The notes beneath the pieces were generated by a model. It saw only the letters and a program-made list of their open reading frames with translations. It ran no database searches and was not told the DNA's origin. Below, piece by piece: positions 2,055 through 55,435 of a DNA stretch of 64,000 bases. Positions within the stretch are counted from its first letter, which is position 1. Each line of letters opens with the position of its first letter. A program made the translations under genes and the position numbers. Source of the stretch: an uncultured delta proteobacterium (lineage in GTDB: Bacteria; Desulfobacterota; Syntrophorhabdia; Syntrophorhabdales; WCHB1-27); contig CAVVNC010000011.1 of assembly GCA_963749525.1 (NCBI GenBank), forward strand, positions 5,450-69,449, read 5' to 3'.

Positions 2055-2768
2055 ATGAATCTTGCCTGGATACCCAACCTGCTCACCCTCGGCAATCTGA
2101 CCTGCGGATTTGTCTCGCTCATCTTCGCAAGCACGGGCTCCCCCGAAGGATACCGGGTGGGGGCCGTGCTCATCCTGCTCGCGGCCCTGCTGGATGGCTT
2201 CGACGGTCAGGCGGCCCGGTGGCTTCGCGTGGACAGTCCCTTGGGGAAGGAGCTTGACTCCCTGGCGGATAGCGTCGCCTTCGGCGTTGCGCCGGGCTAT
2301 CTCGCCTATAAGACGTACCTTTCGGGGTTAAGCGTTCCCCTTGCCGGAAGGCCGGTCGATCTCGGCATCCTCCTCGCCGCAGTCTTTCCTATCTGCGCCG
2401 CGTACCGGCTTGCCCGTTTCAATGTCCGGCCTTCGCCGCGCTCCTTCGTCGGTCTTCCCTCTCCTGTTGCGGGGATCCTCGTGGGCCTGGGGATCCTCTG
2501 CTTTCCCCACGGAAACATCCCGAGGCCCCTCTTTGCCGTCCTCCTTCCGCTTACCGGTTTTCTCATGGTCTCAACCGTGGGCTACTCCAAGCCCCAATCG
2601 TTCATCCTCAAGAACCTCCACGGCTTCAAGCTGGCGGGTCTCATCATCCTCGTCGCCTTTCTCCTTTTCCTGTTCAGGTTCTGGCTGTTGCTGCTCGCTG
2701 TCTCTGTCTACGTCCTCTCGGGTCTTGTCGGCTACCTCATCCAGCTCATCGAGGAGAGGCGGTTCTAG
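2055..2768 (+). CDS. pssA: CDP-diacylglycerol--serine O-phosphatidyltransferase
   Basis: IPNLLTLGNL start; DGFDGQAAR...GKELDSLAD CDP-alcohol phosphotransferase motif; RLARFN; FVGLPSP. Confidence 0.9.
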   Translation: MNLAWIPNLLTLGNLTCGFVSLIFASTGSPEGYRVGAVLILLAALLDGFDGQAARWLRVDSPLGKELDSLADSVAFGVAPGYLAYKTYLSGLSVPLAGRPVDLGILLAAVFPICAAYRLARFNVRPSPRSFVGLPSPVAGILVGLGILCFPHGNIPRPLFAVLLPLTGFLMVSTVGYSKPQSFILKNLHGFKLAGLIILVAFLLFLFRFWLLLLAVSVYVLSGLVGYLIQLIEERRF

Positions 2769-2829
2769 GGAAGAGCGAGAACCTCAGAACACGCCAAGGG
2801 GCTGACCTTCCCCTTCTTCCCTGCGGACC

Positions 2830-2903
2830 CAGGGCAAGCGTATTTGGAAACTCGACCCTCCATCACCTCCCTATCGAGACTCTTTCCAAATGCGCTTGCC
2901 CTG
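2830..2903. mobile_element. 74-bp MITE-like element, empty form of the nested repeat family
   Basis: 21-bp terminal inverted repeat CAGGGCAAGCGTATTTGGAAA (2830-2850) / TTTCCAAATGCGCTTGCCCTG (2883-2903), 1 mismatch; same ends flank the larger element at 5296-5649. Confidence 0.8.
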
Positions 2904-2954
2904 TTTGCGAACCAATTCAAGCTTGACTTGAGATCATTTACTCTCATAGAGTAG

Positions 2955-3484
2955 GTGAGCGTCGCGAAAAGAGTCCTGCATAAGTTAGCTTCTTGGACGA
3001 ACAAGAGTCGCGGACTTCCGGAGTACGGAAACGGCATCTTCGCGAAGCCGTGGGTCGGCCATCTCATCGATAAAAAGGGGGAAAGATTCGTCTTGAGCGG
3101 CGAAGCCTTTCTCTTCTTCTTCGCCTGTCTGGGCTACGCCTTTGCCGAAGACCTCTTCAGCGGGAGCCTAGCCATTCTTCTCGTCTACCTGTGCTATGTC
3201 GTCGATTTTTCCCTCGATTCCGTGTACATGGCGCGGACCACGTACATGAGGAAAATCGCCCTCAAGCCGGAAGATGTCTCGCTCAGCCTTTCCCTGGGGA
3301 CCAGCCTCGACCATCTCGTTACCATATGGGGGGACTGGTGTGGTATAGGGGCGGCCCTAGAGGGTACAAATACGTCTTTCTGGGGGGCGCACTCATCGCG
3401 GTCCTTAACTTCATTTCTTCCCGTATGATAAGCACCGGGGAGGAAGGGGGAATCCTTACGCAGGAAGGCGCGGTCATGGGCTGA
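2955..3484 (+). pseudogene. C-terminal fragment of an MFS transporter, frameshifted
   Basis: GHLIDKKGER MFS-like loop; SLGTSLDH...GGLVW...GYKYVFLGGALIA continues in a second frame; N-terminal half absent. Confidence 0.65.
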
Positions 3485-3566
3485 CCGGTTGTGGCCCCCG
3501 TCGATTCCTTGGCGTGTCCGCCGCCTGAGCCGTACGTACAAGGAAAAGCTCTTGCTCTAAAAGAGG

Positions 3567-5172
3567 CTACCGGATGCGAATTCTGTAGACTTTGAACCTC
3601 GGGTCCATCCCCACGTATGCGGTTGAGACCGCTCTCGGATGCCTGCGACGGACTTCGTCGACCATGGCCGTGAGAGACGATTCATCGTTGAAGCGATCGA
3701 AAGGGGTGCACAGGACGTAGCGACCCTTATTGGCTTTGAGGGTTCGGAGGAGCTCATCCACTGTGACCGGCTGCGTTGCGACCCCGTAGTAGGGCGAGGC
3801 AGGAGCCACGACCAGGGGCCTGAAGGCACGCCGTCCGGTATAGAGAAAGACCATCGAATCGAAATAGCTGGCAATGATGTCCGTCGGCCGGGTGTGCGAT
3901 TCTATCCAGCCGAAAACATCGGTGAAGCAGGACCAATTAGCCGGACTCTGCCAGTATGAGACCGTCGTGGGATAGTGGGTCTTGTGATTGAAGGAGGCTA
4001 CGGCGCGAGTCTGCCATACGTTTCCCAATATGAGCAGGAGTCGAGGCCGCTGCGACGAGCGCCTTTCTGCCGGTCGAAGGGGGCAGGTTGCGCAAGAGGC
4101 GCCAGGCTTCGCCGAGAAGATAGCAAAGGAGGAACCCGAGCACGGGGACGATGAACCGCAGCGGAGGCCACGGCCAGATCAGCACCACCAGGAGATAGGC
4201 GAATATCGTCCAGGGGAGGATCTCCTTTCTGCGCAAGCCCCGCCAGAGCCCGACGAAAGCAGGGATTCCGGCTAAAGCGATCAAAGGCCAAAGCCGTGGC
4301 TGCCATGAGACGAATCTCGAAAGAGACGTCTCACCGGAGTACACGATGCCATAGGCGAGACTGACCAGATTAAAAAGGATGACCCTCACCTCGACCCGGA
4401 CGCCTACGAAGTCCCTCCACCAATCCCAGTAACTCGTATAATAGTAGACGACAGGGCTCGATTCCTTCGAATGGAGGCTCCAGGCGAACCACGCGGCAAC
4501 TATCAATATTGTGCCGATCCCGACCATCCAGGAAAGGCGGCGGCGGAAAAGAAGGAAGGCGAGGGCCGCAGGTATAAGGACCACCCCTATGGACCTCGTC
4601 AGGAAGGGAAGGACGATGACCATTGTCAACAGCGCTTTGTGGGATACGCGGTTCGAGTCCGATCGGACGAATCGATCCAGCATGAACAGGGCCAGGATGA
4701 GAAAAAAGGCAAAAGGCATTTCCGAAAGAAGGAGGGAGCTGTAGTAGAGCATGTAATGAGAGGTGACGGAGAGCAGGGCTGCCAGCAGAGCGACGGGACG
4801 GCTGAAGTAGCCGCACGTGACAACGTAGTAATAAAAGAGGCCCATAGAGAGGGCCGACATGAGAAGGGTGAGCCACTGCATGGCCAGCACATTGGCCGGA
4901 AAGGCCGGCCAAATCCTCCAGATGATGGAGAGCAGCGTGGGGTAGAGGGGAGGATACTTGGTCTGAGACGGCGTGTCCGGGAGACTGATGAGCCGATAGC
5001 CCTGGTCCGAAGCCAATGATTTGGCTGTGCTCACGTAGATGCCGTCGTCGTGAAAGACCCCGGTCACCAGGGGGACCATGAAGAGACCGCCCGCGACGAG
5101 CGTAACGACCACGAGGGCGGCAGCCGCGAGTATGTCCCTGTTCCGAAGGCAAAAGGCAGATAATCCTGTCAT
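3567..5172 (-). CDS. GT-C fold (ArnT/PMT-like) membrane glycosyltransferase, frameshift near 4030-4050
   Basis: HDDGIY acidic loop after TM1, YPPLYP, LLSEMPF, many TM segments; ORFs 3937-5250 and 3567-4028 overlap in different frames. Confidence 0.7.
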
Positions 5173-5295
5173 GGACGGCGTTAATAGTGCCACAGGTCCA
5201 TCTGAATTGCAACTCTTGAAGGAGCAATGGGAGGGCCAGACGGAACCCACAGTCGGGTATCGGACGAGTCTCTACCCGGGAGAAGGAGTCTGTCG

Positions 5296-5649
5296 TCAGG
5301 CCAAGCCCATTTGGAAAGGGTCTCGGTAAGGCGGGCGGACACGCATTACCTCCTCGTGACTCACCGGCAGTTATTGGGGCTTAAGCGCCCCCTCCGGCAG
5401 CGAAGCTGCCAGAGCCTCCCCCCTCACCCTCGCTTCGCTCGCTGCATCGCTCCTCACATTCCGGCCCTCACTCCCTCCAACCCCCACGCTAAGCTTGCGG
5501 GGGCATTCGTCATTCGTGCCGGAATCGTCGCGAGCTTTTCTTCGCAGTCCTTCCGCAATGCGCGAGTCGGCAATGCGCGTCCGCCCTCTGTCTTGCCCAT
5601 TCGACAGGGAGGTCATGGAGGGTAGGATTTCCAAGTGCGCTTGGCCTGA
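5296..5649. mobile_element. Nested composite repeat: outer 22-bp TIR + alpha core (15-bp IR) + module B
   Basis: TCAGGCCAAGCCCATTTGGAAA / TTTCCAAGTGCGCTTGGCCTGA (2 mismatches); inner GGGCGGACACGCATT (5333) / AATGCGCGTCCGCCC (5586); interior shared with 24778-25030, 30032-30216, 43996-44185, 48547-48733. Confidence 0.85.
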
Positions 5650-5801
5650 ATCTGCCGATACTTAACCTGTTGTCTAAATTTGAAGTAGTGTATGATATTT
5701 GGTACGTTTTTGAATGTTGTGTCCAAGACGACGACTCGGTAAATGGTGTGCCTTGGCGCCGGACAATGGAGCGCCATAGAATCTTATCAAGGAGGCTAAA
5801 A

Positions 5802-6563
5802 ATGGCAGATCTGAAAGGAAAGATCGCGATCGTCACGGGCGCGGGCAGAGGCATTGGGAAAGGGACCGCCCTGGAACTGGCGAAAGAAGGCGTGAAGGTG
5901 GTGCTTGCCGGCATCACGGAGCGCAACATCGGCCTGGTAAAGGAAGAGATCGAGGCGATGGGCGGGGAGGCAATCCCTGTCCAGACGGATATCTCCAAAT
6001 GGGAAGACGCCCAGAGACTGGCGAAAAGAGCGGTGGAGAAATATGGACGGATCGACCTTCTCGTCAATAATGCGGGGATCCACCCGCAGAACGAACAGAA
6101 CCTCCGTTTCGGCACCCTGGAGATAGGGGACGCAGACTGGGACATCGTCATCGACACGAATCTGAAAGGCCCGTTCAACGTCTCGAAAGCCGTCATACCC
6201 TACATGATGGAGCAGCGCTACGGAAGGATCGTGAACGTCAGCTCGAACACGGGCCTCACGGGCCTCGTCGGCTCCGCTCCCTACTGCGCCTCGAAAGCAG
6301 GCATCATGGCGCTCACAAAGGTGCTCGCAGGGGAGTTCGGCCCCTATAACATCACGGTGAACAGCATCGCGCCGGGGCTCACGATGACCGACATGAACGC
6401 CGGCATACCCCAGGATATCATCGACGGATGGGTCACAACCATGCCCTTAAGGAAGGCGGGCACGCCCTTTGACATCGCCCGTGCGATTATCTGCGCCCTC
6501 GGCGGCGACGTATTCTGGACCGGACAGACGCTCGTGGTGGACGGGGGATCCTATATGCACTAG
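5802..6563 (+). CDS. SDR family oxidoreductase (FabG-like)
   Basis: TGAGRGIG, NNAG, YCASK motifs; AAGGAGG RBS. Confidence 0.92.
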   Translation: MADLKGKIAIVTGAGRGIGKGTALELAKEGVKVVLAGITERNIGLVKEEIEAMGGEAIPVQTDISKWEDAQRLAKRAVEKYGRIDLLVNNAGIHPQNEQNLRFGTLEIGDADWDIVIDTNLKGPFNVSKAVIPYMMEQRYGRIVNVSSNTGLTGLVGSAPYCASKAGIMALTKVLAGEFGPYNITVNSIAPGLTMTDMNAGIPQDIIDGWVTTMPLRKAGTPFDIARAIICALGGDVFWTGQTLVVDGGSYMH

Positions 6564-9654: not shown

Positions 9655-9750
9655 ACCGCCTGGAGGAATCGCGAGCTATTACTGGGGCTCAGCGCCCCCC
9701 TCCACAGGCAAAGCCTGCAGAGCCTCCCCCTCAATCTCGCTTACGCTCGT
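9655..9750. repeat. Module B palindromic repeat with a short upstream arm
   Basis: GGAATCGCGAGCTATTACTGGGGCTCAGCGCCCC...CAGGCAAAGCCTG...CTCGCTTACGCTCG; matches 24495-24583 and 54860-54945. Confidence 0.8.
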
Positions 9751-17559: not shown

Positions 17560-19371
17560 CTATTCCATTACTTCTTGCATGACGTAATCACCATACCGGT
17601 CGACAAGGGGCTGCCGAATCTGTATCAGATCATAGGACCGCTTGACTGCCAAGGCAAACACGATGATTACCAAAGCCATGATGATAATCGAGAGACCGGC
17701 GAGGAGATGCTCTCCCTTGGGCAGGTAATTCATCGTGATATTGAGGTACCCGGCATAGAGTGTCGTAAAGGCCATGACGATACCCGGGATGGCAGTGATC
17801 GCCACGTATCTCATTTTCCCCATCCTGAGGAGCATGATAGTGCCGATGATCAGGGCGCTTGCGGCAAGGAGCTGGTTGCTCATGCCGAAGAGCGGCCAGA
17901 TTGTCGTGATATCGCCGGTGAAAACAAGGTAGCCCCAGGCGCCTGTGAAAAGAAAGCTGGTGATCAGGATACCGGGCATCCAGCGCTTTTCCAGAAACTT
18001 GGGAACGACCTTGCCGATCATTTCCTGCACGAAGAACCTTCCCACTCTCGTGCCCGTGTCAACGGCCGTCAGGATAAATACGGCTTCGAACATGATGGCA
18101 AAGTGGTACCAGTAGGACATCAACCCCTTCATGAAGGGAACGGCGGAAAAAATGTAGGCCATACCCACGGCGAGCGATACCGCACCACCCGGCCGCCCCT
18201 GAACTTTCTCCTGCACCTCTGAGGCAAGCTGCGGAAGATTGACCGGGACCATCCCCAGTTTTGCGTAAACCGCGGGCGCCGCGTTGATGGCGAAATAGTC
18301 CGCCGGAATAAGGACGCATGCCGCAATAAGGGCCATGATAGCCACAAACCCTTCAACGAGCATCGCACCGTAGCCGATAAACAGGACGTCCCGTTCGTTG
18401 GCGATCATTTTCGGTGTCGTTCCCGAACCGATGATGGCGTGGAATCCCGATAGGGCACCGCAGGCGATCGTGATCATGATGAACGGATAGACGGCGCCCG
18501 GAACGATCGGACCGCCGCCATGGATATAGGGCGTCAGGGCAGCCATATGGAAATCAGGCCGCATGATCAATATACCGCCGGTCAACATGGCGATGGTGCC
18601 TACCTTCAGAAATGTCGTGAGATAGTCGCGTGGGCAGAGCAGCATCCAGACCGGAAGAACCGAGGCAACGAAGCCGTAGAGCGGTATGATAAGAGATATC
18701 TTCCTCTTCGAGAGGGTGAATATGGCAGACAAGGTTGGGTTTGCCGCGACATAAGGACCGGCAAGGATCGCCAGAAAAAGAAGGACAACGCCGATGATGG
18801 TCGCCCCTTTTACGTCGCCCTCGCGAAATACGTGAAGGTAAATCCCCATGATGAAAGCGATCGGCATTGTGGCAAAGACAGTGAAAGTTGCCCAGGCGCT
18901 TTCGAACATGGCGTTGACGACAGCGATGGAAAGGCCGGCTAGGGTGAGAAGGAGAATGAAAAGAAAGGCGAAGGAAGCGACAAGTCCGGCAGATTTGCCT
19001 ATTTCGCTTTCGGCGATTTTCGAAAGGCTCTGCCCCTTATGTCTTACGGAGGCGAAAAGCACGACCATGTCATGAACCCCGCCTGCCAGTACCGCACCGA
19101 TGATGATCCAGAGCGCCCCGGGCAAATAACCGAACTGGGCGGCCAGCACCGGTCCCAGGAGGGGACCGGCAGCGGCAATTGCGGCAAAGTGATGGCCGAA
19201 GAGCACATACCTGTTGGTCTTCACGTAATCATGGCCGTCAGCCATCGTGACGGCGGGAGTGGCTCTTTTCGCTCTCAGATTGAGAACTCTGTTCGCGATG
19301 AACAATCCGTAATAGCGATAGGCAAGCGCGAAAACACACAACGAAACGATCACGAGCGTCAATGCATTCAT
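17560..19371 (-). CDS. cstA: Carbon starvation protein A family transporter (peptide/pyruvate)
   Basis: DGHDYV, LFGHHFAAIAAAGPLLGP, TIACGALSGFH, IWPLFGMSNQLLA. Confidence 0.95.
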   Translation of the reverse strand: MNALTLVIVSLCVFALAYRYYGLFIANRVLNLRAKRATPAVTMADGHDYVKTNRYVLFGHHFAAIAAAGPLLGPVLAAQFGYLPGALWIIIGAVLAGGVHDMVVLFASVRHKGQSLSKIAESEIGKSAGLVASFAFLFILLLTLAGLSIAVVNAMFESAWATFTVFATMPIAFIMGIYLHVFREGDVKGATIIGVVLLFLAILAGPYVAANPTLSAIFTLSKRKISLIIPLYGFVASVLPVWMLLCPRDYLTTFLKVGTIAMLTGGILIMRPDFHMAALTPYIHGGGPIVPGAVYPFIMITIACGALSGFHAIIGSGTTPKMIANERDVLFIGYGAMLVEGFVAIMALIAACVLIPADYFAINAAPAVYAKLGMVPVNLPQLASEVQEKVQGRPGGAVSLAVGMAYIFSAVPFMKGLMSYWYHFAIMFEAVFILTAVDTGTRVGRFFVQEMIGKVVPKFLEKRWMPGILITSFLFTGAWGYLVFTGDITTIWPLFGMSNQLLAASALIIGTIMLLRMGKMRYVAITAIPGIVMAFTTLYAGYLNITMNYLPKGEHLLAGLSIIIMALVIIVFALAVKRSYDLIQIRQPLVDRYGDYVMQEVME

Positions 19372-19444
19372 GCCCTGTTTCTCCTTGAGTCTCTAGCTGA
19401 GCCACAGTTATTTTACAAAATATGGAGAGTTTTTGAAAGGGCCT

Positions 19445-19920
19445 AGTTTGGGCAGGCGATTATTGGGGCTCGCGTCGCCCCCTCCACAGGCATGAGCCTG
19501 CGGAGCCTCCCCTTCATAAAAAGGAAGAGACGGAAAGGCCGGACCTCACGGGCTACTGGATCGGCTCACCTGCCGGTATACCAGGCGGGAGGGCCGCCTC
19601 TAGATTTTGAAAAGACAGGGTTGTCTTTGTTTGGGCTTCGCGGCAGTGTGGGATCGATAGGGCATGTCCACAAGGCGGTCCCGTCCTTATCTCGTCGTGC
19701 ATAGTCCGAGGACGGCGCAAGAATTGCTCGCGACGAATCCGGACACGTTTAACGAAGCCCCCGCAAGCTTTGCGTGGGGGTTGGGTCTCGCATTTTTCTT
19801 GACCTTTTCCGCCACTGCATATCATGATACTTGAAAGGCAGTAAATCGCGAAGCGAGCATTGAGGGGGAGGCTCCGCAGGCTTACGCCTGTGGAGGGGGC
19901 GACGCTAGCCCCATTAAACG
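19445..19920. repeat. Mosaic of module B, beta-element modules and an inverted module B between the divergent cstA genes
   Basis: Segments nearly identical to 24515-24880 and 55155-55332; module B copies at both ends in opposite orientation. Confidence 0.85.
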
Positions 19921-19933
19921 GAAGGAAGGGATT

Positions 19934-21628
19934 ATGAATGCCGTGTTCGTCCTCGTTCTTGGTTTTCTTGTCTTTTTCATCGGATATCGTTTCTACGCGC
20001 GATACATCGATGCAAAGGTCCTGAAGGCGGATGCGAGCCGTGATACTCCGGCAAAGGTGTACATGGACGGGGTCGAGTTCATCCCCACGAGCAAGAACGT
20101 CCTCTTTGGGTATCAGTTCAAGTCGATCGCAGGCGCCGCGCCCATCATAGGCCCCATCATTGCCATTCAGTGGGGCTGGCTGCCGGCACTCATCTGGATA
20201 CTGGGCGGAGCCCTCTTCATTGGGTGGGTCCAGGACTACTCCAGCGCCATGATCGCCATGCGCAGCGATGGGGCGTCTTTCGGGGGACTCACCCACCGCC
20301 TCATCTCCCCCAGGGCGCGGATCATCCTGCTTTCTTTCCTCTATTTCTATCTCCTTCTCATCGCCGGGGCGTTCGGGAATGTGGTCGTGAGCACGGTCAT
20401 CTCCCTGAAGTCCGCGCCCATGTCGTGGCTTTTCCTTACCATTGCGGGCGTCCTTGCCGGTCAGATGATCTATCGCTGGAAAAGGGATATCCTCCTCACT
20501 ACCATTGTCACGGTCGTCCTCTGTTTCGCGGGCATAGTGCTGGGGAGTGTCGTGCCGTCAGATACCTTGCTCGGCGAAAGCCTCGCAAATAGCAGGTTTG
20601 TCTGGGCGATCGCGGCTTTTGCCTTCTGCTACTGCGCCGCGATCCTGCCAATATGGCGATTCTCGTTGCCTATCAACTACGTGGCCTCATACGTCGTCTT
20701 TCTCGGGCTTTTCTTCGGCATAATCGGGGTGTTCGTGCTCCATCCATCCTTCTCACTTCCCGCGGTGACCACTTTCTCCATCAAGATCGGGCCTGTCTGG
20801 CCGATCATGTTTGTCACCATCGCGTGCGGCGCGGTCTCCGGCTGGCACAGCATCGTGTCGAGCTCCGGGACTGCCCGCCAGCTCGAAAATGAACTGGACG
20901 CCCGGCCCGTGGGGGCGGGGGTCATGTTCGTGGAGATGATACTGGCCCTATTTGCCCTGATCATCGCGGGTACCATCTATGCATCTCCTGCAGCCTACAG
21001 CGCTGCCGTGGCTCTGGGGCCTGGCGCCATTTTTGCCGCAGGCCTGTCCAAGTTCCTCGGCGTGTTAGGCTTGCCCGCGGCCCTTGGCCGGTCGTACGGC
21101 AGCGTCATGATGGTAATCCTTGCCATCACCATCATGCAGCTCATCATCCGCTTCATGAAGCTGGCGACCGCTGAGCTTCTGGGCGATGTGAGCCCCCTGT
21201 TCAAGAACGGCCATATCGCCACCTTCCTGGCGTGCGTGTTCGGCATGGTCCTCGTGCTGACCGGGTGGTATGAGTACCTGTGGGTTCTCTTCGGCGGCGC
21301 CAACCAATTGATGGCGTCCCTGGCGCTCATGCTCGTCACCGCCTGGCTGATGGCCGAAGGAACATCGTATGCCTGGGCCTTCTATCCAATGATTTTCATG
21401 TTCATCACCACCATAGCGGCGCTTTGCTACACGTCCTTCGGGCTCTTATCAAAGGTGGCCACCGGGATGGTGAAGGGCGGGGCCCTCGTGGGCAACACAC
21501 TCATGGGACTGATAGGGCTCTTTCTGGTTGTTGCGGCCTTCGCCCTCGGGATCGAAGGGGTAAAGGCGTTCGCACGCCACAGGCGCGCGAGAAAGGCCGT
21601 CGCGGCGGCGGACGCGGCGCGGGCGTGA
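19934..21628 (+). CDS. cstA: Second, divergent CstA-family transporter
   Basis: DGVEFIP, LFGYQFKSIAGAAPIIGP, TIACGAVSGWH, LFGGANQLMA. Confidence 0.92.
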   Translation: MNAVFVLVLGFLVFFIGYRFYARYIDAKVLKADASRDTPAKVYMDGVEFIPTSKNVLFGYQFKSIAGAAPIIGPIIAIQWGWLPALIWILGGALFIGWVQDYSSAMIAMRSDGASFGGLTHRLISPRARIILLSFLYFYLLLIAGAFGNVVVSTVISLKSAPMSWLFLTIAGVLAGQMIYRWKRDILLTTIVTVVLCFAGIVLGSVVPSDTLLGESLANSRFVWAIAAFAFCYCAAILPIWRFSLPINYVASYVVFLGLFFGIIGVFVLHPSFSLPAVTTFSIKIGPVWPIMFVTIACGAVSGWHSIVSSSGTARQLENELDARPVGAGVMFVEMILALFALIIAGTIYASPAAYSAAVALGPGAIFAAGLSKFLGVLGLPAALGRSYGSVMMVILAITIMQLIIRFMKLATAELLGDVSPLFKNGHIATFLACVFGMVLVLTGWYEYLWVLFGGANQLMASLALMLVTAWLMAEGTSYAWAFYPMIFMFITTIAALCYTSFGLLSKVATGMVKGGALVGNTLMGLIGLFLVVAAFALGIEGVKAFARHRRARKAVAAADAARA

Positions 21629-21882
21629 ATTACCGCAATGAGTTGTGGACCTGAGGATGAAGAGGAGGAAAGCAACGACCATTGCGGACGGCGACAGAAA
21701 CGAGCGAAGCGAGGCTTAAGGGGGGAGGCTCCGAGGCTTGCCACTGAGGTGCGGTTCCAGGCGAGCGAAGCGAGTCTCTGAGGGGGGAGGCTCCACGGGC
21801 AATGCCAGCGGAGGGGGCGCTGAGCCCCAATAATAGCGCGCGAGAAAGGCCGGCGCGGCGGCGGACGCGGCGCGGGCGTGAA
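21583..21882. repeat. 47-bp direct repeat of the cstA 3' end flanking a 206-bp insert that holds a double module B
   Basis: GCGCGCGAGAAAGGCCG(T/G)CGCGGCGGCGGACGCGGCGCGGGCGTGAA at 21583-21629 and 21836-21882. Confidence 0.9.
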
Positions 21883-21930
21883 GGCTCGCAGTATTGTCTT
21901 TAAGGTGAGGAGAGAAGGAGGCAGGGAGTC

Positions 21931-22200
21931 ATGGCACAAGAGGACAAGAAAGGCGGTCTGTTTCGGACGATCAAAGACTTCGTTTACGGAGCGGCCGCTC
22001 ACGACTCCGCCCGGTCTGCCCTTAAATCAAAATCAAACATGGAGCACCTTTTCATGGTCATCACCGTAGGTGACATGCTCGGGGTCCCCGTGATGCCCCC
22101 CTACTATTCTCTCCGGCTCCTGCCGCACCTTGTTCCGAAGATAGCGACGTGGAAGAGGAGGATGCTCAGGGAAAAAGACCTTACTGACGGGTTCGGATAG
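21931..22200 (+). CDS. Small CstA/ArsA-associated protein resembling the cory-CC-star family but without terminal Cys-Cys
   Basis: EHLFMVITVGDMLGVP...YYSLRLLP...WKRRM pattern; GGGAG RBS; lies between cstA and the ArsA-like genes. Confidence 0.75.
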   Translation: MAQEDKKGGLFRTIKDFVYGAAAHDSARSALKSKSNMEHLFMVITVGDMLGVPVMPPYYSLRLLPHLVPKIATWKRRMLREKDLTDGFG

Positions 22201-22222
22201 GAGGCAAGAGTGCGGACAATAT

Positions 22223-22369
22223 AGCGTTCCGCAGAATTCATTCCCGTTACCGACCGGCTCCATCTTTTCCTTCGCTACGATAGGCTCCGCTTTAGGAAAA
22301 GATTACGCAGCGAAAGTCTCACTTTCGCGAATACGCCGGGGCGGTCGTTACTTTATTCTGCGGAACGCT
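22223..22369. mobile_element. MITE-like element, family F, copy 1 (147 bp)
   Basis: Perfect 15-bp TIR AGCGTTCCGCAGAAT / ATTCTGCGGAACGCT; near-identical copy at 30617-30736. Confidence 0.85.
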
Positions 22370-22438
22370 CTAGATAATTCGGGCAAGCCGGCCCTCTCAC
22401 CATCCGGGGATCATAGGGTCGACCCAGGATAAGGAGGT

Positions 22439-23412
22439 GTGCCATTTCTCTCGCAAGGATCTTCGAGGAGCATCCTGAGAGGCGCTACATCATGCTCGGA
22501 GGCAAAGGCGGACTCGGGAAGACGACCCTCTCGGCGGCGACCGCATACTATCTCGCTAATCAGGGCAAGCGGGTCCTCGTCTTCTCCGTAGATCCCCAAG
22601 CTTCTCTTTCCGATATCTTTCAGCGGGACATCTTCGGCAAGGGACCGACTGAGATCATTCCGAATCTTTATGCCCAGGAGATCGATGGGGCCTCAAGGCT
22701 GAGGGAGCACCAGCTGGAGATCCGCCAAAAGATCCTCGACATGTATGGAATGGAAAAGGTGCCCGACGAGATAGAGAGCCACATCCAGGCCGCCGCAACG
22801 AGGCCGGGTATGGAGGAGAGCGCGGCTTTTGACGCAATGGTCGATATCGTGGTAAAGGGCGGATATGATTACTATGTCTACGACCTCGTGCCCCTCGGCC
22901 ACGCCTTCCATTACCTGAGCATGGCCTCGGTTCAGAACGCCTGGATCGGCAAGATGACCGGGCTCAGGGGAGAGATGCGGGAGCATGACCGCGTGGCGGC
23001 TGTCATGCGCAGGGACAAGGAAATGGACGAGGACGCTATCCTCAGCGAGCTCCTCCACACTAAAGAACGCTTGAACAAATCGTCGGCCATCCTTGCGGAT
23101 AGGGAGAAAACGGCCTTCTTCCTGGTTCTGACTGCGGAAGGAGCGGTTATCGACGCGACGTTAAGGGCGGTCGAGCTTCTAGCGAAGTACGACGTGCCGC
23201 TGGCCGGCTGCATCGTCAACCGCGTGCTCCCCGATTCCCTGAAAAGGCAGGAGATACCCGACTATCTGAGGAGCCGGCTCGCCATGCAGGAAGACTACCT
23301 CAAGAAGGTAGGAGATAGATTCGCGGGGCAGATCCTCGCCTCGGTTCCCGAGATGGCGAGCGACGTCACAGGGCTTGCCATGATCGAGAGGCTCGCGGCA
23401 GCCATGTTCTGA
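22439..23412 (+). CDS. ArsA/Get3/TRC40-family ATPase 1; start probably displaced by a 1-bp error near 22441
   Basis: GGKGGLGKTT deviant Walker A, SVDPQASLSD, DLVPLGH, IVNRV; AAGGAGG at 22431 precedes open frame AISLARIFEEHPERRYIML. Confidence 0.88.
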
Positions 23413-23435
23413 AAAGGCCGCGCACGGAGGCGATT

Positions 23436-24419
23436 GTGGAAGGGATCTTCACGGGCATGAGGCAGTTCATGGAAGGGAACCCCGGCCTCAAGTATATCTT
23501 CTTCATGGGCAAAGGCGGCGTGGGGAAGACGGTAATGGCCGCCGCCGCGGCCCTCTGGTCCGCTAAGAGAGGCAGAAGGACGCTCCTTGTGTCCACGAAC
23601 CCGGTTCACAGCCTTTCCGATCTCTTCGGACAGGATGTCTTCGGAAAGCCCGCGGCTGTCTGCAACGAGGAGCGGTGCCATGCTTTCGAAATTGACACCC
23701 ATGACACCATCGAGAAGTCCAAGCAGCAGATCCGCGATAAGATCGGCTGGTTCCTGAAGTCCGCCGGCATCACGACCAAGGCGGAGGATTTCCTAGAACC
23801 GGCGACGATGAATCCTGCCCTAGAAGAATCGGCTATGTTCGAGAACATGATGGACCTCATCTTCAGGGACGAATACGATTTCTACGTCCTCGACACGCCG
23901 CCCTTCGCCAGCGCGCGGAGACTCCTCGGCATGGGGAAGGTATACTCCCTCTGGGTGGAGAAGATGCTGAAGAGCCGGGAAGAGGCCAAGTCCCTGCGGG
24001 AGGCCCTGTCCTTTTCAAAAAAGCAGCAAGACGACCCCCTCATGGACTACCTGTTGGGCTTACGAGAGAGGATGTCCAAGGCAGAGAAGCTACTCGCCGA
24101 CAAGGCCCTCACAGCCCTCTTTTTCGTGACCGTCCCGGAGAGCCTTCCCATTGCCGTCACCGCAAGGTTCATCGACTGGTCTTCCGGAATGGGCATGCCC
24201 GTGGGCGGGGTTATCGTCAACGGAGTGATGCAGAAAGGCGAGATCAACGAGCGCACCGCGGAGTTCGTGAGGAGCAGGATAGCGATGCAGGACGAGCACA
24301 TGGCAGAGATCCGCTCCCGATTCAGCGAACGGGTGAGGGCGGTCATTCCGCTTTTCGAGACAGAGGTCAAGGGCAGCGCCATGCTGGAGCGGATGGGCAC
24401 ATACCTCTTTGCCCCGTGA
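23436..24419 (+). CDS. ArsA/Get3/TRC40-family ATPase 2
   Basis: GKGGVGKT, STNPVHSLSD, DTPP, PESLP, IVNGV, IPLFETEVKG. Confidence 0.9.
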   Translation: MEGIFTGMRQFMEGNPGLKYIFFMGKGGVGKTVMAAAAALWSAKRGRRTLLVSTNPVHSLSDLFGQDVFGKPAAVCNEERCHAFEIDTHDTIEKSKQQIRDKIGWFLKSAGITTKAEDFLEPATMNPALEESAMFENMMDLIFRDEYDFYVLDTPPFASARRLLGMGKVYSLWVEKMLKSREEAKSLREALSFSKKQQDDPLMDYLLGLRERMSKAEKLLADKALTALFFVTVPESLPIAVTARFIDWSSGMGMPVGGVIVNGVMQKGEINERTAEFVRSRIAMQDEHMAEIRSRFSERVRAVIPLFETEVKGSAMLERMGTYLFAP

Positions 24420-24440
24420 GCCGCCCTTACGTCGTGTCAT

Positions 24441-25107
24441 GGGGCGTGAAAAAAGGGCTTCGGGTCTATATGCAGGTTCGGCCGGTCCGCATGAAGGAAT
24501 CGCGAGCAATTAATGGGGCTCGCGTCGCCCCCTCCACAGGCATAAGCCTGCGGAGCCTCCCCCTCAATCTCGCTTACGCTCGTGTGTGCCGTTTGCGCAC
24601 CGTCCATTAGCCGCCGGAATTGAACCAACGGTCGCCAATTCCGGCTTTTAGAGGACGCTTGAGCGACTATTGGATCGGCGGCCTGCCGGAATACCAGGCG
24701 GGAGGGCCGCCTCTGGATTTTGAAAAGACAAGCTTTTGGGCTTCGCAAAGGTTGGGATCGATAGGGCATGCCCCCAAGGCGGTCCCGTCCTTATCTCGTC
24801 GTGCATAGTCCGAGGACTACTTAGAAAAGCTCGCGACGATTCCGGCACGAATAACGAATGCCCCCGCAAGCTTTGCGTGGGGGTTGGGGGGAGTGAGGGA
24901 CTTAAATGAGGAGCGATGCAACGAGCGAAGCGAGGCTGAGGGGGGAGGCTCTGGCGGCTTATGCTGCCGGAGGGGGCGCTTAAGCCCCAATAACTGCGGC
25001 GAGCACGCACGAGGTAAGGACGGGACCGCCTGCCGGTAGGGGAGAATCAGTTTCGTACGTTCCTTAAGTCTCTAAGCAGCTTAAACCTATACTCGCCGGC
25101 CCAAACC
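24441..25107. mobile_element. Longest beta-type composite repeat (about 670 bp), containing two module B copies
   Basis: Perfect 16-bp IR GGCGGTCCCGTCCTTA (24778) / TAAGGACGGGACCGCC (25030); colinear with the reverse complement of 43919-44360 and with 54805-55332. Confidence 0.85.
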
Positions 25108-25604
25108 ATGCCGACATTACAGAATTGGCATGACGCTGAAAGCCGTGCTCTCGTCCGATGGTGGCCGACATGAGATCCCGCGACCGTGGCCTTAAGGGAA
25201 AAGACAGGAAGAAAGAACCCCTATTCGACGACCGTGGTCGTTCCTCTCATCCTCTCGTGGCCTATTCCGCAGAAATTGTCGCAATGAAAAGGGAACGTGC
25301 CCGTCTTGTGGGCATACTCCCCCCTTTGGCATTCCCTCGCACCCCGCGGAATCCGAGCCCCCTGTAAGGCTGTTTCGGATCCCAGGGGATCGGGTCCTTC
25401 ACAGGGACAGAGCCCGGCGCAGGCACGGGGTACATGAGCCCCTTTGCCGCATGGTAGGCGATGCGGCAGTTTTAAAAGCAATGCCCGGCTGTGGCTGTGG
25501 CAACCGGAGACACCCGACGGAAGGATCTGTCCCGGGCGGGCAAGGCCTCCCCGGCGAAAGAGACCCCACGGCGAGCCAGGCCCCCCTTATGTGTTGTTCG
25601 GTTT

Positions 25605-28399: not shown

Positions 28400-28562
28400 C
28401 GAGCGAAGCGAGCCACGGACAGGCCGAGCAAAGCGAGGCTTGAGAGGGAGGCTCCGGAGGCTTGGCCACTGAGGTGCGGTTCCAGGCGAGCGAAGCGAGT
28501 CTCTGAGCGGGGAGGCTCCGCAGGCAATGCCAGCGGAGGGGGCGCTGAGCCCCAGTAATAGC
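28400..28562. repeat. Double module B repeat
   Basis: Near-identical to 21699-21837, including linker GCCACTGAGGTGCGGTTCCAGGC and end GCTGAGCCCCA.TAATAGC. Confidence 0.85.
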
Positions 28563-29997: not shown

Positions 29998-30216
29998 CAG
30001 GGCACGCGCATTTGGAAAGAGTCTCCATAGGGGGCGGACGCGCATTACCTCCTCGTGACAGCCGAGCCGAGAGAAAAGCGTCGCTCCTCATTCCGGCCCT
30101 CACTCCCCCCATCCCCCACGCTGACGCTAAGTGGGCTTCGTTATTCGGGCCGGAATCGTCGCGAGCTTTTCTAAGTGGTCCTCGGCAATGCACGAGTCGG
30201 CAATGCGCATCCGCCC
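29998..30216. mobile_element. Alpha-type nested repeat without module B; right outer end missing
   Basis: CAGGGCACGCGCATTTGGAAAGAGTCTC left end; IR GGGCGGACGCGCATT (30032) / AATGCGCATCCGCCC (30216). Confidence 0.85.
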
Positions 30217-30256
30217 TTTCGCTCGTCCATCGCCTCCGCAACCTTGAGCTTTCGGC

Positions 30257-31289: not shown

Positions 31290-31465
31290 CGTGATGCCAG
31301 GGCACGCACATTCTTGCCCTGACCGTGGTGTCAGGGCAAGCACATTCTTGCCCTGACCGTGGTGCCAGGGCAAGCCCATTCTTGCCCTGACCGTGGTGTC
31401 AGGGCATGCCCTGACCGTGGTGTCAGGGCAAACCAATTAAGCCCATTCTTGCCCTGACCGTGATG
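31290..31465. repeat. Tandem array of 24-bp palindromes (REP-like)
   Basis: TGCCCTGACCGTGGTGTCAGGGCA at 31315, 31349, 31383 and 31407, partial copies at both ends; constant linkers. Confidence 0.9.
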
Positions 31466-42741: not shown

Positions 42742-43890
42742 ATGTTCCGACTCACCCCCGAGCAGAAGGACATCAAACAGGCGGCACGAGAGTTTGCCGA
42801 GAAGGAGTTCACCGACGTCGCCCGCGAGCTGGACGATAATGAGCGCTTCGATGACAGCTTATGGAAAAAGACCGCCGAGAACGGCTTCCTCGGCGTCTTT
42901 ATCCCTGAAGAATATGGCGGTCCGGGTCTCGGTCACTTCGAGCAGTGCCTCATCATCGAAGAGTTCGCCCGGGTGGATGGCGGCATCGCCCAGAGCATGG
43001 TTGCGTGCTACTTCGGGACCCAGATGATCAAGCTCTTCGGGACCGAGGCCCAGAAGCAGAAGTACCTTCCCCCCATCTGCAACGGTACATGGAGGGCAGG
43101 CATGGCGTCCACGGAGCCTGACGCGGGAAGCGATGTCGCCGCCATCGCCACGACTGCGGAGAAGGACGGCGCCGACTACGTCATCAACGGGACGAAGATG
43201 TTCATCACCAACGCGAACATAGGCAACTACCTCGTCGTCCTCTGTCTTACGGACCCGAAGAACCCGAAGACCCACAACCGGATGAGCACCATCATAGTGG
43301 AGACGGACAGGCCCGGCTACGAAGCCTCTAAGCTCCACGGCAAGCTCTCCATCCGCTGCTCCGATACGGGGGAGATCGCCTTCAAAGACCTCCGCGTCCC
43401 TCAGGAGAACCTCATCGGCCAGGAGGGGAAGGGCTTCTACCAGCTCATGGAGTTCTTCAACCGCGCCCGCCTCGACGGCGGGGGCGCCCTCGCCGTCGGC
43501 ACTGCCCAGGGCGCCCTGGAGAAGGCCATCAGCCACGTCAAGAAAAGGAGGGCCTTCGGCGCCCCCCTCGCGAGCCTTCAGATCGTTCAGGCGAAGATCG
43601 CCGAAATGGCGACCCTTCTCGAGGCCGGACGAAGCCTCCTTTACCGCGCCGCCCTTTCCGTCGACGCGGGTGAGATAGATCCCGCGCTCGTGGCCATGGC
43701 GAAGTGGTACACCTGTGAGATCGCCGTGAAGGTGGCGGACGAGGCGATCCAGCTCCACGGCGGCTACGGCATCCTCAAGGAATACGGCGTCGAGCACTAT
43801 TGGCGCGACGCGAAGGTCTTCGAGATCTTCGAAGGCACGAAAGAGGTAGAGAAAGTCCTCATAGGGAAGAAGCTGCTGGGGAAGGGGTAG
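42742..43890 (+). CDS. Acyl-CoA dehydrogenase
   Basis: STEPDAGSD, NGTKMFITN, IQLHGGYG, IFEGT; AAGGAGG RBS. Confidence 0.95.
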   Translation: MFRLTPEQKDIKQAAREFAEKEFTDVARELDDNERFDDSLWKKTAENGFLGVFIPEEYGGPGLGHFEQCLIIEEFARVDGGIAQSMVACYFGTQMIKLFGTEAQKQKYLPPICNGTWRAGMASTEPDAGSDVAAIATTAEKDGADYVINGTKMFITNANIGNYLVVLCLTDPKNPKTHNRMSTIIVETDRPGYEASKLHGKLSIRCSDTGEIAFKDLRVPQENLIGQEGKGFYQLMEFFNRARLDGGGALAVGTAQGALEKAISHVKKRRAFGAPLASLQIVQAKIAEMATLLEAGRSLLYRAALSVDAGEIDPALVAMAKWYTCEIAVKVADEAIQLHGGYGILKEYGVEHYWRDAKVFEIFEGTKEVEKVLIGKKLLGKG

Positions 43891-43918
43891 CGGCGCGTGA
43901 AGCCTGTAGTGTCGCCCG

Positions 43919-44360
43919 GGTTTGGGCCGGCAAACAAGAGTCTGAACTGTCCAGAGACTGGAGGAGCGTACGAGAGTCCTTGCCCCCTACCGGCAGGCGG
44001 TCCCGTCCTCACCTCCTCGTGACTCGCCTCGCCAAAAGAAAAGCATCGCTCCTCATTCCAGTCCCTCACTCCCCCCAACCCCCACGCTAGACGCTAAGGG
44101 GGCTTCGTTAAACGTGTCCGGAATCGTCGCGAGCTTTTCTAATCCGTCCTCGGACTATGCACGACGAGATAAGGACGGGACCGCCGTGTGGGCATGCCCT
44201 ATCAATCCCACACTGCCGCGAAGCCCACATAAAGACTACCTTGTCTTTTCAAAATCTAGAGGCGGCCCTCCCGCCTGGTATACCGGCAGGCCGCCGATCG
44301 CGATCCCTCCATGCGGACCGGCCGGACTTGCATGTCGACCCGAAACCTTCTTCTCCGCCC
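43919..44360. mobile_element. Beta-type composite repeat without module B, inverted relative to 24441-25107
   Basis: 14-bp IR GGCGGTCCCGTCCT (43996) / AGGACGGGACCGCC (44185); colinear homology with 24441-25107. Confidence 0.85.
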
Positions 44361-44457
44361 GGGTCACACGATTTCCCTTCGGGCCGTGTCTGCGTTATAC
44401 TACCGATGGTGGACCCGTATGCGCCTTCGGAAAGAGGGAGGCGCAAAAGGGCCGGGA

Positions 44458-44505: not shown

Positions 44506-46257
44506 ATGGGCAGAACCTCTTTGCTATCGGCAGTCTGCGCGCTCTTCCTTCTCTTCGCCGTATCGGAGGCGCACGGGGCAACGATCGCAGCGGGCCTGAG
44601 CCACACCCTCGCAATCAAGGCGGACGGCACCCTCTGGGCGTGGGGCGACAACACGAGCGGCGAGCTGGGTAGGACCGCCCGCCACCGTCGGCAGCACCCT
44701 GCTTTCCCCACAGGCGGATAGCTCCATCCTCCACGTGGACTGCCATTGCCGCAGGATCCGGTTTCACCATCGCAATCAATTCGGACGGCACTCGCTGGGC
44801 GTGGGGAGACAATTCCACCAGCCAGCTCGGGGACGGCTCGAATCACGTCACAGCACTTCCCCGAGCAGATAGCCCCATCCCTCACCTGGACGGCCGTCGC
44901 CGCGGGCTCGAGCTTCGCTGTGGGAATCGAGTCCGACGGCAGCCTCTGGGCGTGGGGCGACAACACGAGCGGCCAATTGGGGATAGGTGTCATCGGCGGG
45001 AGCTCCCTCCTCCCCCAGCACGAAGTTCAGGCCTTCACGTGGAATGCCGTTACCGCTGGGTCGAACTTCGTTGTCGCAATCAAGTCGGACGGCACCCTCT
45101 GGGCGTGGGGCGACAACACGAGCAGCCAGTTGGGCAGGGGTGCGGGCCCTGGGAGTTCGTTTCCCGTGCAGGTAAGCACGGACTCGACCTGGACCGCGGT
45201 CACCGCGGGAAAGGATTTTGCCCTGGCCTTGAAGTCTGATAACACCCTCTGGGCCTGGGGGAACAACGCAAGCGGCCAGTTGGGAGACGGCTCGACCACG
45301 ACACAGACCTCCCCCGAGCAGATAGTTCCATCCTTCACGTGGATCGCCGTTGCCGCGGGCTCGAATTTCACCGTGGCCCTCCGGGCAGACGGCAGCCTCT
45401 GGGCGTGGGGAGACAATTCCAACGGCCAGCTCGGGATCGGGAGCACGATCGGGAGCGCCTCTCCGGTGCAGGTGCCCTTGCTTGGCTGGACCGCCGTTGC
45501 TGCAGGCTCGAATTTCACCGTGTCCCTCCGGGCAGACGGCACCCTCTGGGCGTGGGGGAACAACGGAAGCGGGCAGCTCGGGGACGGCTCAACCACAATG
45601 AGGACATCCCCTGAGCAGATCTTGACCGGCTTCCCCGTATCTCCGGCGGTCATGTCGGTGATTCCCGCAAGCGGCGCCCGCAATGTCAACACGAATACGA
45701 CGATTCAGGCCACTTTCAGCGAGGCCATGGACCCCACGACTATAACGACTGCCACCTTCTCGCTCAGCGGCAACGTGACAGGAACGGTCGCGTACGATCC
45801 GTCGACGAATAAGGCCACCTTCACCCCCACAGGGCACTTGAGCAACCTAACGATGTACACGGCGACGATCACGACCGACGTGAGGGACCTTTCAGGCAAC
45901 AGCCTGCCGGCAAACTTCGCGTGGAGCTTCACCACGGAGCAAAAGAGCAGCCACTGTTTCATCGCCACAGCCGCCTATGGGTCGTATCTCGACCCCAGGG
46001 TCGAGGGCCTGAGGGTCTTCAGGGACAGATACCTCATGACGAACATGGCCGGGAGGTATTTCGTGGACCGCTACTACCGATACTCGCCTCCCCTCGCGGC
46101 CGTGATCGCGCGCCACGAGGCCTTGAGGAGCGTGACGCGGTGGGCGTTGACGCCGCTCGTCTTCGGGGTAATGCACCCGGCCCTCTTCGGCCTTGTTCTG
46201 CTATGCCTGGCGGCTCTCTCTGCGGCAGCGCTCAAACGGGTGGGCCGCCTCAGGTGA
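44506..46257 (+). CDS. Secreted RCC1-repeat protein with Ig-like (Big_5) and CFI-box-CTERM domains; frameshifts near 44690 and 44840
   Basis: Signal peptide; repeated [14 protein letters not shown]; FSEAMDP..WSFTT; [11 protein letters not shown]...LRVFRDRYL...YYRYSPP; C-terminal TM with basic tail. Confidence 0.88.
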
Positions 46258-48509: not shown

Positions 48510-48794
48510 TGAGACCAAGCACACTTGGGAAGAGTCTCGGGAAGGCGGGCGGTCACGCATTACCTCCTCGTGACTCACCGAGCCGAGAGAAAAGCATCGC
48601 TCCTCATTTAAGTCCCTCACTCCCCCCATCCCCCACGCTGACGCTAAGGGGGCTTCGTTATTCGTGCCGGATTCGTCGCGAGCTTTTCTAATCAGTTCTC
48701 GGCAATGCACGAGTCGGCAATGCGCGTCCGCCCTTTGTCCTGCCCGTTCGATATGGAGGTGAGTGAGGTATGGTTTCGAAATGCAGTAGCCTCG
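48510..48794. mobile_element. Alpha-type nested repeat without module B
   Basis: Degenerate outer ends; IR GGGCGGTCACGCATT (48547) / AATGCGCGTCCGCCC (48733). Confidence 0.8.
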
Positions 48795-48900
48795 GCCCGT
48801 CACGGGAAGTGTTCTCGAATGAGCCTTTGGCGCCAGCCACTGCCGAGGCGCGGGAGGCAGACCTCATCCCCCCAAAAGGCCAAGGTTTTTGGTTAGCTAG

Positions 48901-50582: not shown

Positions 50583-50595
50583 CTAGTTACCGGAC

Positions 50596-54804: not shown

Positions 54805-55332
54805 GGGGCGCAGAAGACAAGGCTTAGGGTGGACATGCAGGTCCGGCCAGTCCGCCTGAAGGAATCGCGAGCAATTAATGGGGTTCAGCACCCCCTCCAC
54901 AGGCAAAGCCTGCGGAGCCTCCCCGCTCACCCTCGCGTGCGCTCGTCATGGGCGCCCTCTTCACCACGTGGCCTCCGATATACGAAAGTATTATCTGCGG
55001 CCGACGTGGTTCAGATTGCATCCACACCTCACGCGATCGTTTTTCCAAGGCGGGAAAAACGATCCTTGATCCCTCCACGCGGACCGTCCATTCGCCGCCG
55101 GAATTGAACCAATGGTCGCCAATTCCGGCATTTAGAGGACGCTTGAGCGACTATTGGATCGGCGGCCTGCCGGTATACCAGGCGGGAGGGCCGCCTCTAG
55201 ATTTTGAAAAGACAAGGTAGTCTTTATGTGGGCTTCGCGGCAGTGTGGGATTGATAGGGCATGTCCACAAGGCGGTCCTGTCCTTATCTCGTCGTGCATA
55301 GTCCGAGGACGACTTAAGAATTGCTCGCGACG
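54805..55332. mobile_element. Beta-type composite repeat, truncated on the right, with an extra internal segment
   Basis: Colinear with 24441-24838; extra ~140 bp around 54946-55085. Confidence 0.85.
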
Positions 55333-55435
55333 AACGCTTCCGTCCCAAGGGGGTACCCGAGTGACTCCCGCAATGCAACGCTTCCGAAAAGGTTCCGCCT
55401 GGTAAGCCAATCGGTACTTTGTTTTGAGAAAGGGT

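Follow-up and report, generated by a model that had tools for sequence, protein, structure and literature searches.

Nested miniature elements with ISAs1-type ends in the genome of an uncultured Syntrophorhabdales bacterium

The 64,000-nucleotide stretch of DNA analysed here (the window; C11:5450-69449 of assembly GCA_963749525.1, from an uncultured delta proteobacterium of the Syntrophorhabdales) carries a short palindromic element, termed the shell, which occurs empty, filled with a core of ~200 nt, and filled with a core that in turn holds a ~75-nt module, B. We favour, at a probability of roughly three in four, a history in which the shell is a miniature inverted-repeat transposable element (MITE) derived from an insertion sequence (IS) of the ISAs1 family, the core nested in it once, B was acquired later, the packages were amplified, and some copies shrank by repeat-mediated deletion. 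The finding is mostly explained by known biology, and the sequence-targeted mobiliser proposed in the original prediction, which was made from the letters of the window, is unneeded.

In the proposed history, an ISAs1-family DDE transposase supplied in trans would move the shell and generate 9-10 bp duplications at varied sites. A hairpin-closed core of ~200 nt would have nested once at the centre of an ancestral shell, with the 9-bp repeat around it read as a target duplication, and shell plus core would then have amplified as one unit. In one sub-lineage the 75-nt B would have replaced a short linker in the core, and this triple package would have been amplified too. In at least some cases, deletion between short direct repeats would give rise to empty and smaller forms, as one metagenome copy illustrates. 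Core and B would themselves be families of hairpin elements that fold on a particular strand and whose pairing is maintained by compensatory change.

The assembly (G000) comprises 3.10 Mb in 64 contigs, with 57.9% G+C and a completeness of 80.7%. It was compared with 30 relatives to give a set of 31 genomes, the relatives searched for B being 18 of the same family and 12 of the same order. Shell elements were counted by genome BLAST and mismatch-tolerant motif scans, and presence or absence in metagenomes was read from contigs of four peat-metagenome runs aligned to positions 2300-6300 of the window.

Shell elements and their ISAs1 parent

The empty shell of 74 nt lies at 2830-2903 on the minus strand (C11:8279) and is palindromic, with two 21-nt terminal inverted repeats and 32 inner bases. 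The doubly filled composite of 352 nt occupies 5297-5648 on the plus strand (C11:10746), in which the left shell end spans 5297-5333, the core 5334-5585, and the core tail together with the right shell end 5586-5648; module B, a two-hairpin unit of ~75 nt in place of a 13-nt linker, is situated within the core at 5364-5441 and is assigned to the minus strand, the better-folding one. The singly filled composite of 284 nt is found at 48511-48794 on the plus strand, with its core at 48548-48732 and degenerate outer inverted repeats. At 29998-30220 on the plus strand a left shell end is joined to a core of the a type, but the tail and the shell end on its right have been lost. This anatomy is the one originally described (a 74-bp element, a filled form at 48510, a doubly filled form at 5296 and a left half at 29998), and its coordinates required correction by no more than 1 nt, to the two composite spans given above.

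The genome holds ten two-ended shell elements, of which three are empty (C11:8279, C25:12845 and C40:16418) and seven are filled, and four additional filled copies that are one-ended or degenerate. The two-ended elements range from 74 to 644 nt, occur in multiple copies at intergenic sites and have no transposase open reading frame (ORF).

The nine nucleotides on each side of these ten elements were compared, allowing an offset of up to 2 nt, and agreed at 9, 9, 8, 7, 7, 6, 6, 5, 5 and 2 of nine positions. Agreement of at least 7/9, which was reached by 1.5% of 20000 random position pairs (9/9 by none), is seen in five of the ten, well above the chance expectation and in empty and filled copies alike, and the duplicated sequence differs from site to site. 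The flanks of the shell at 2830-2903, CTGCGGACC and TTGCGAACC, agree at 7/9 with a 1-nt offset; those of the composite at 5297-5648, AGTCTGTCG and AATCTGCCG, also agree at 7/9. The target duplications and the mixture of empty and filled sites that had been named as a check on the original prediction were both recovered. Filled copies at other loci carry other duplications, such as TCTTTCTGC at C30:28447 and TCGACTCGT at C62:16624, and the metagenome contigs contain ten shell-plus-core composites, one of them with B, that have 9-10 bp duplications of their own (for example CATGATCCCA and GTCTTCTCT). Each filled shell thus has a locus and a target duplication of its own, as expected of packages that transpose whole.

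The parent of the shell was recognised through its ends. A metagenome scan for a degenerate form of the 21-nt end returned 79 loci, comprising 31 with end pairs 72-382 nt apart, 17 with pairs 1238-1294 nt apart and 31 that are one-ended. Among them, the 21-nt ends of the shell bracket 16 elements of 1238-1249 bp; the end pair of 1294 bp (L088) was left uncounted as an IS, since a 547-aa ORF unrelated to the transposase overlaps it. Both 1248-bp elements examined (L050 and L114) encode a 388-aa protein, and that of L114 matches NF033564, the NCBIfam model of the ISAs1 family transposase, with an E value of 2.3e-130, as well as Pfam DDE_Tnp_1_assoc and DDE_Tnp_1. L114 has GGCTATGGTG on either side, a 10-bp duplication. 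In the 31 genomes the ISAs1 transposase scores above cut-off in six, and complete copies of 1239-1259 bp are present in four related Syntrophorhabdales (G003, G010, G017 and G026). The ends of these copies read CAGGGCAA(G/A)CGCATTTGGA (...TTTGAAAA in G017), with 1-3 mismatches to the shell ends, and all four copies inspected are bordered by perfect 10-bp duplications. The available text of PMC11946415 and Table 3 of PMC6305408 give as hallmarks of ISAs1 a direct repeat of 10 bp and inverted repeats that begin with CAGGG. Because its 21-nt ends match those of complete ISAs1 elements and it is accompanied by 9-10 bp target duplications, the shell is an ISAs1-derived MITE, an internal-deletion derivative of an ISAs1-family IS that has lost the transposase.

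When one genome per species was scanned for the degenerate 21-nt end, nine loci were obtained. Five of them lie in metagenome-assembled genomes (MAGs) labelled Syntrophorhabdus, Syntrophorhabdales or 'delta proteobacterium', and the lineage is therefore placed. The loci in Spirochaetaceae and Limisphaerales are single ends and may be chance matches. We also note that a Dehalococcoidia MAG (L030) and an Akkermansia MAG (L031) carry ISAs1-type ends around unrelated bodies of 426 nt and ~260 nt, respectively, the former within a perfect 10-bp duplication, GGAGGTTGCA.

The shell is thus mobilised by a DDE transposase of the ordinary ISAs1 kind, whose 9-10 bp targets vary and which would act in trans. 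The idea of a mobiliser elsewhere in the genome holds insofar as an external one is required; a transposase gene between the same ends exists in the four relatives and in metagenomes, and none was found in this assembly, which is 80.7% complete. The composite at 48511 adjoins a complete ISNCY-family IS at 48894-50589 on the plus strand, which encodes a 475-aa transposase (NF033593, E 2.3e-142) and has 24-nt inverted repeats of its own; these ends are unrelated to the shell, and the element was rejected as its mobiliser. The other transposase-type genes of the genome are two of the IS1182 family, one of them under the curated cut-off, and two rve matches. IS256 was not found in the genome.

Nesting of the core and acquisition of module B

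While the central domain of the core is conserved, its closing stem occurs in two wholly different versions, GGCGGACGCGCATT / AATGCGCGTCCGCC in the a type and GGCGGTCCCGTCCTTA / TAAGGACGGGACCGCC in the b type. In all 17 two-ended filled copies, seven from this genome and ten from metagenomes, the core stem begins 34-37 nt from the left end of the shell, and 56-65 nt lie between the core and the right end. The core was described as having TCG on both sides; this repeat is real and forms part of a longer direct repeat of ~9 bp with the consensus TCGATAGGG, whose two copies agree at 8/9 in three elements, 7/9 in two and 6/9 in one of the subfamily with a 35-nt offset. Empty shells contain exactly one copy of the TCGATAGGG-type repeat. 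The single internal junction position common to all 17 filled copies, with its ~9-bp direct repeat, makes it the simplest reading that the core nested once in a proto-shell and that the package was then copied. In addition, all 11 a-type cores of this genome adjoin shell ends.

Module B was thought to be one further layer added to the core. Within cores, it occupies a single fixed site, in a-type and b-type cores alike, where it replaces a linker of 13-14 nt (AGCCGAGAGAAAA or TCGCCAAAAGAAAA), which is not a clean insertion. The B-bearing shells are C11:10746, with one copy of B, C25:50896, with five, and the metagenomic L097; AGGTCA is found only in these three, and all others have AGGTGA. This shared marker suggests a single acquisition of B in the shell lineage. 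Taken together, the common junction, the confinement of a-type cores to shells and the marker of the B-bearing shells make it look as if each layer was gained in a single event and thereafter multiplied as part of a package. The comparison of stems and of helix 2 between core types, from which five copies dropped out at the anchor cut, further reveals three chimeric b-type copies with an a-type helix 2. Recombination can therefore move B between core types.

The same data bear on a rival model, in which a sequence-targeted mobiliser, whether Y1/HUH, of the IS110 type or guided by RNA, would insert each layer repeatedly and site-specifically at the TCGA centre of the shell and at the linker of the core. 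Such a mechanism would account for the presence of B at an identical internal site in two core types with wholly different closing stems; the non-monophyly of empty shells discussed below is also explicable by repeated insertion, and the strand-specific folding of core and B resembles single-strand transposase substrates. However, 0 of the 11 a-type cores stand away from a shell end, most elements have inner repeats whose two copies differ from each other, as after one ancient event, and the metagenomic empty shell L083 is shorter than the sequence reconstructed from the flanks of its filled relatives. The position of B in both core types is open to the recombination evident in the three chimeric cores. 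The shell ends, for their part, are of the ISAs1 DDE type with varied targets, and the internal junction has one position.

The search for candidate genes led in the same direction. TnpB (PF07282) has no match in the genome, and the only Y1_Tnp match is an IS200-like protein of 318 aa with a long C-terminal extension (G000:C20:23675-24628, L013). B was not found within 1.4 kb upstream of this gene, and the contig stops ~80 nt downstream. Relatives of the Y1 gene are multi-copy and patchy across the 31 genomes, and they are absent from the B-bearing genomes G002, G004, G006 and G007. A Y1 system of the type of the REP-associated tyrosine transposases (RAYTs) was rejected as the mobiliser of B, since no B flanks the gene in the stretch of contig around it and the distribution of the gene does not track that of B. 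An IS200/IS605-type palindrome-associated transposable element (PATE) or a TnpB-linked element was rejected as well, given that target duplications are present and PF07282 is unmatched. We consider a sequence-targeted mobiliser very improbable.

The peat metagenomes provided an empty site. Each of the four runs holds one contig that joins position 5248 to 5648, with 5249-5647 absent, and 35 diverged letters stand between the two sides of the joint; the divergence from the window is ~2-3% across the aligned flanks. The joining contig carries one GAATCTGCCG, while in the window the 352-nt element is bracketed by AGTCTGTCG(T) and AATCTGCCG. The contig is read as the empty-site allele for the entire three-layer package. 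Because all four runs hold a contig that skips the insert, with diverged letters across the join, the three layers come and go together. The presence/absence polymorphism looked for under the original prediction therefore exists at 5297-5648 at the level of contigs. No contig skipping the 2830 shell was found among the contigs of the four runs. Opposite-strand joints at 2869-2871 and 5333-5335 were considered as a rearrangement; their sides measure only 25-35 nt and were taken as other copies of the repeat.

The direction of change was approached through a tree of shell sequence only (19 rows and 68 columns; L074, L099 and L076 were omitted on account of truncated or diverged junctions). In this tree the empty 72-nt L083 groups with the filled L115, L057 and L098 with a support of 100/99. 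The starred branches require at least two changes between empty and filled, and the empty shells are not monophyletic. L083 has the substitutions of its clade on both sides, but at an AGGTG microhomology it lacks 3 nt that the flanks of the filled members would supply; nested among filled copies and shortened at the joint, it is best read as a deletion product. L074, of 156 nt, is a half-deleted composite. The three 74-nt empty copies of this genome may be either ancestral survivors or products of precise deletion mediated by the repeats. The alternative first put forward, stepwise insertion or stepwise precise deletion, is upheld as regards nested non-autonomous elements and the near-precise deletion of L083, but not as regards repeated site-specific insertion. 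The layers are independent in part: the shell and B occur alone, whereas the a-type core does not, and its sister, the b-type core, occurs outside shells.

A tandem array with a 34-nt period at 31298-31462 on the plus strand contains five reduced shells of 24, 24, 24, 14 and 33 nt. These mini-palindromes consist only of the tips of the ISAs1 inverted repeats (CAGGGCAAG..CTTGCCCTG), each followed by a 10-nt unit, ACCGTGGTGY, and the array reads as an element plus its target duplication, tandemly repeated. The window as a whole displays a full size series, from the 352- and 284-nt composites through the 74-nt shell to tips of 33, 24 and 14 nt.

Deletion might even account for all the short forms. 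If the filled form were the original MITE body, the 74-nt and smaller forms would be deletion products only and the 9-bp repeat would be pre-existing microhomology. Derivatives shortened by deletion are indeed on record, namely the 33-, 24- and 14-nt forms as well as L074 and L083, and the same ends in other genomes enclose several unrelated bodies of 246-426 nt, which makes a shared 74-nt precursor unnecessary. Nevertheless, agreement at 6-8/9 between the repeats that bracket the core in six copies is improbable without a duplication event; by a rough estimate rather than a calculation, ~0.5% of 60-nt tails would agree at 8/9 or better. The b-type cores outside ISAs1 ends indicate, moreover, that the core exists independently. 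We regard an originally filled MITE as unlikely.

Several observations weigh against the single nesting and package copying that we prefer. Two of the ten shell elements are without a duplication (2/9 and 5/9), and two more agree at only 5-6/9. The ISAs1 transposase (PF13808, NF033564) was found neither in this genome, at 80.7% completeness in 64 contigs, nor in either of the same-genus genomes searched. The data from the peat runs are contigs rather than reads, and show presence or absence rather than allele frequencies. Ten of the 16 inner branches of the 68-column shell tree are unsupported. In a-type and b-type cores alike, B and the linker stand in for each other as cassettes, which simple insertion or deletion cannot interconvert. 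Lastly, the right end of the core has ~15 nt (..CTTTGTCTTGCCCGT) that are missing at the left end, and the diverged copy C6:9667 has a ~15-nt inverted counterpart at its left, so that the 9-bp repeat is no textbook duplication around symmetric ends. The tip of the right tail (..CTTTGTCTTGCCCGT) resembles an ISAs1 end, and the core may itself have been another MITE of the ISAs1 type when it entered the shell, its left tip disappearing afterwards, with ACGGGCAAG..CTTGCCCGT as candidate inner ends.

Folded structure of core and B, and hairpin mosaics

Module B is far more widespread than the shell. The genome contains 213 non-overlapping matches to it, of which 101 are nearly complete in length, and neighbours less than 200 nt apart are always head-to-tail. 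A query with two copies of B matched all 18 same-family genomes and seven of the 12 same-order genomes, with nearly all of the listed matches falling on B; the 30 relatives contain almost nothing of core or shell beyond B, apart from one match to the central domain in G002 and one short match in G014. Further copies of B in the window lie at 9669-9733, 19457-19516, 19861-19920, 21740-21843, 24506-24566, 28465-28562 and 54871-54929, and the single-stranded flanks of B are highly conserved (GAGCGAAGCGAG.., ..CCCCAATAA).

B is predicted to fold into two hairpins when read on the strand opposite to the one on which the core is shown, with a consensus energy of -22.4 kcal/mol, against -10.0 kcal/mol for the other strand. 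Its stems show compensatory pairs (CG 51 / GC 30 and AT 34 / CG 33 / TA 9 / GC 6; CG 60 / TA 27 in the first hairpin), and read on one strand the copies have 91 G.U pairs versus 14 A.C pairs. The fold is kept in 13 distinct copies from relatives, with 0 A.C. The core behaves in a similar manner: besides the a-type and b-type stems there are more compensated closing-stem variants (L099, L079 and L036), and the consensus fold of 21 cores without B (160-195 nt) has predicted energies of -58.7 and -36.0 kcal/mol on the two strands. Folded as RNA, the minus strand of the 48511 copy is predicted at -119.2 kcal/mol (z -4.34), compared with -100.2 kcal/mol (z -1.13) for its plus strand. Since the copies share a common descent, the pair counts of B and core overstate the number of independent events. 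Core and B fit a functional single-strand structure, either RNA or single-stranded DNA (ssDNA), for which these predictions are suggestive and not proof.

This raises an explanation in which core and B are functional RNA motifs, or REP-like ssDNA hairpins bound by a protein, that spread by recombination or gene conversion, one of them having been trapped in a MITE. The 213 matches of B, its conservation across the order, its compensatory pairs and the excess of G.U over A.C would be expected of such motifs, as would the wholesale exchange of closing stems that remain paired (a type, b type, L099 and L036), the strand-biased folding energy and the behaviour of B and linker as exchangeable cassettes. 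On the other hand, DNA inverted repeats co-vary too, descent inflates the pair counts, and Rfam 15 is unmatched: none of its families reaches the gathering threshold across the window, none is found at E<=1 in 19300-25300, and 5250-5700 yields only matches far below gathering. The 9-bp repeat around the core, furthermore, resembles a transposition scar. We hold a functional motif trapped in a MITE to be a real possibility, though clearly a minority one.

Outside ISAs1 ends, ~18 b-type cores were found in mosaics of hairpin modules that extend up to ~700 nt, and in at least four copies inspected the mosaic begins just past the stop codon of the upstream gene. The b-type core of the mosaic at 43889-44371 on the plus strand shares its central domain with the shell-borne core and has a wholly different closing stem that is still complementary. 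In the long mosaic at 24432-25137 on the minus strand, a b-type core carries B at the same internal site, and a second B follows downstream in opposite orientation. We also note that the mosaics at 43889-44371, 24432-25137, 19457-19920 and 55079-55334, and on ~14 other contigs, are intergenic chains whose modules are variably present; one such module is a 36-nt hairpin, AAGGATCG..CGATCGC, between GAGGGATC and GTGAGGTG.

A second MITE body with the same ISAs1 ends was observed in metagenomes (L042, L043, L047, L038 and relatives), with lengths of 266/271, 302/308, 345/346 and 381/382 nt. Its steps correspond to one or two tandem hairpin modules of ~37 nt and a module of ~60 nt, each of which partly replaces local sequence. 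Because this series is independent of the first, the colonisation of MITE interiors by hairpin repeats is general in this setting. It is conceivable, but doubtful, that B and the core represent a new kind of strand-specific folded element that uses MITEs as vehicles, either homing to fixed positions within other repeats via an unrecognised mobiliser or acting as RNA or ssDNA signals; the Russian-doll arrangement would then reflect that system rather than the usual decay of transposons. The nature of the core and B is the more interesting part of the finding.

Relation to known repeat systems

The shell shares with the IS of the ISAs1 family the inverted repeats that start with CAGGG, an identical first 21 nt, duplications of 9-10 bp and multi-copy intergenic sites. 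It differs in having no transposase gene, in an interior that is unrelated past ~21 nt, and in a body built of other repeat families. No description of an ISAs1-derived MITE was found in the portion of the literature available to us that pairs ISAs1 with MITE.

The BOX elements of pneumococci follow the scheme boxA-boxB(n)-boxC, with variable tandem copies of the inner module. The present elements are likewise modular intergenic repeats, in which B occurs 0, 1 or 5 times in the same core (for BOX, see the available text of PMC3049150). In contrast to BOX, the shell has an IS parent and clear target duplications, and B also stands alone in ~200 copies. The repetitive extragenic palindromes (REP) and bacterial interspersed mosaic elements (BIME) of enterobacteria, together with the enterobacterial repetitive intergenic consensus (ERIC), resemble the present repeats as short imperfect palindromes in mosaics, with longer and shorter block variants at fixed internal sites and a conserved mismatch that renders the hairpin strand-specific. 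Unlike REP/BIME, the repeats described here were found to flank no RAYT-type gene, and their units of 75 and 185 nt are larger and conserved order-wide. A further likeness is to the Tn3-derived inverted-repeat miniature elements (TIMEs), which, in the available text of PMC4133298, are small inverted-repeat elements that form composite non-autonomous transposons; the transposase family is different, and the cargo consists of genes in TIMEs and of other repeats here.

With these comparisons, a conspicuous repeat gains a parent, an ISAs1 IS of related Syntrophorhabdales, and a mechanism. The elements occupy many intergenic regions and break metagenome assemblies, as contigs end at the shell in the four peat runs. 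The MITEs of this lineage have been repeatedly colonised by small hairpin modules; one of these, B, has been retained throughout a bacterial order, with compensatory changes in its pairs. Repeats of another sort are also present in the window within long ORFs, namely a 141-nt tandem repeat of at least 11 units at 57423-59265 and RCC1-like repeats of ~150 nt at 44585-45618.

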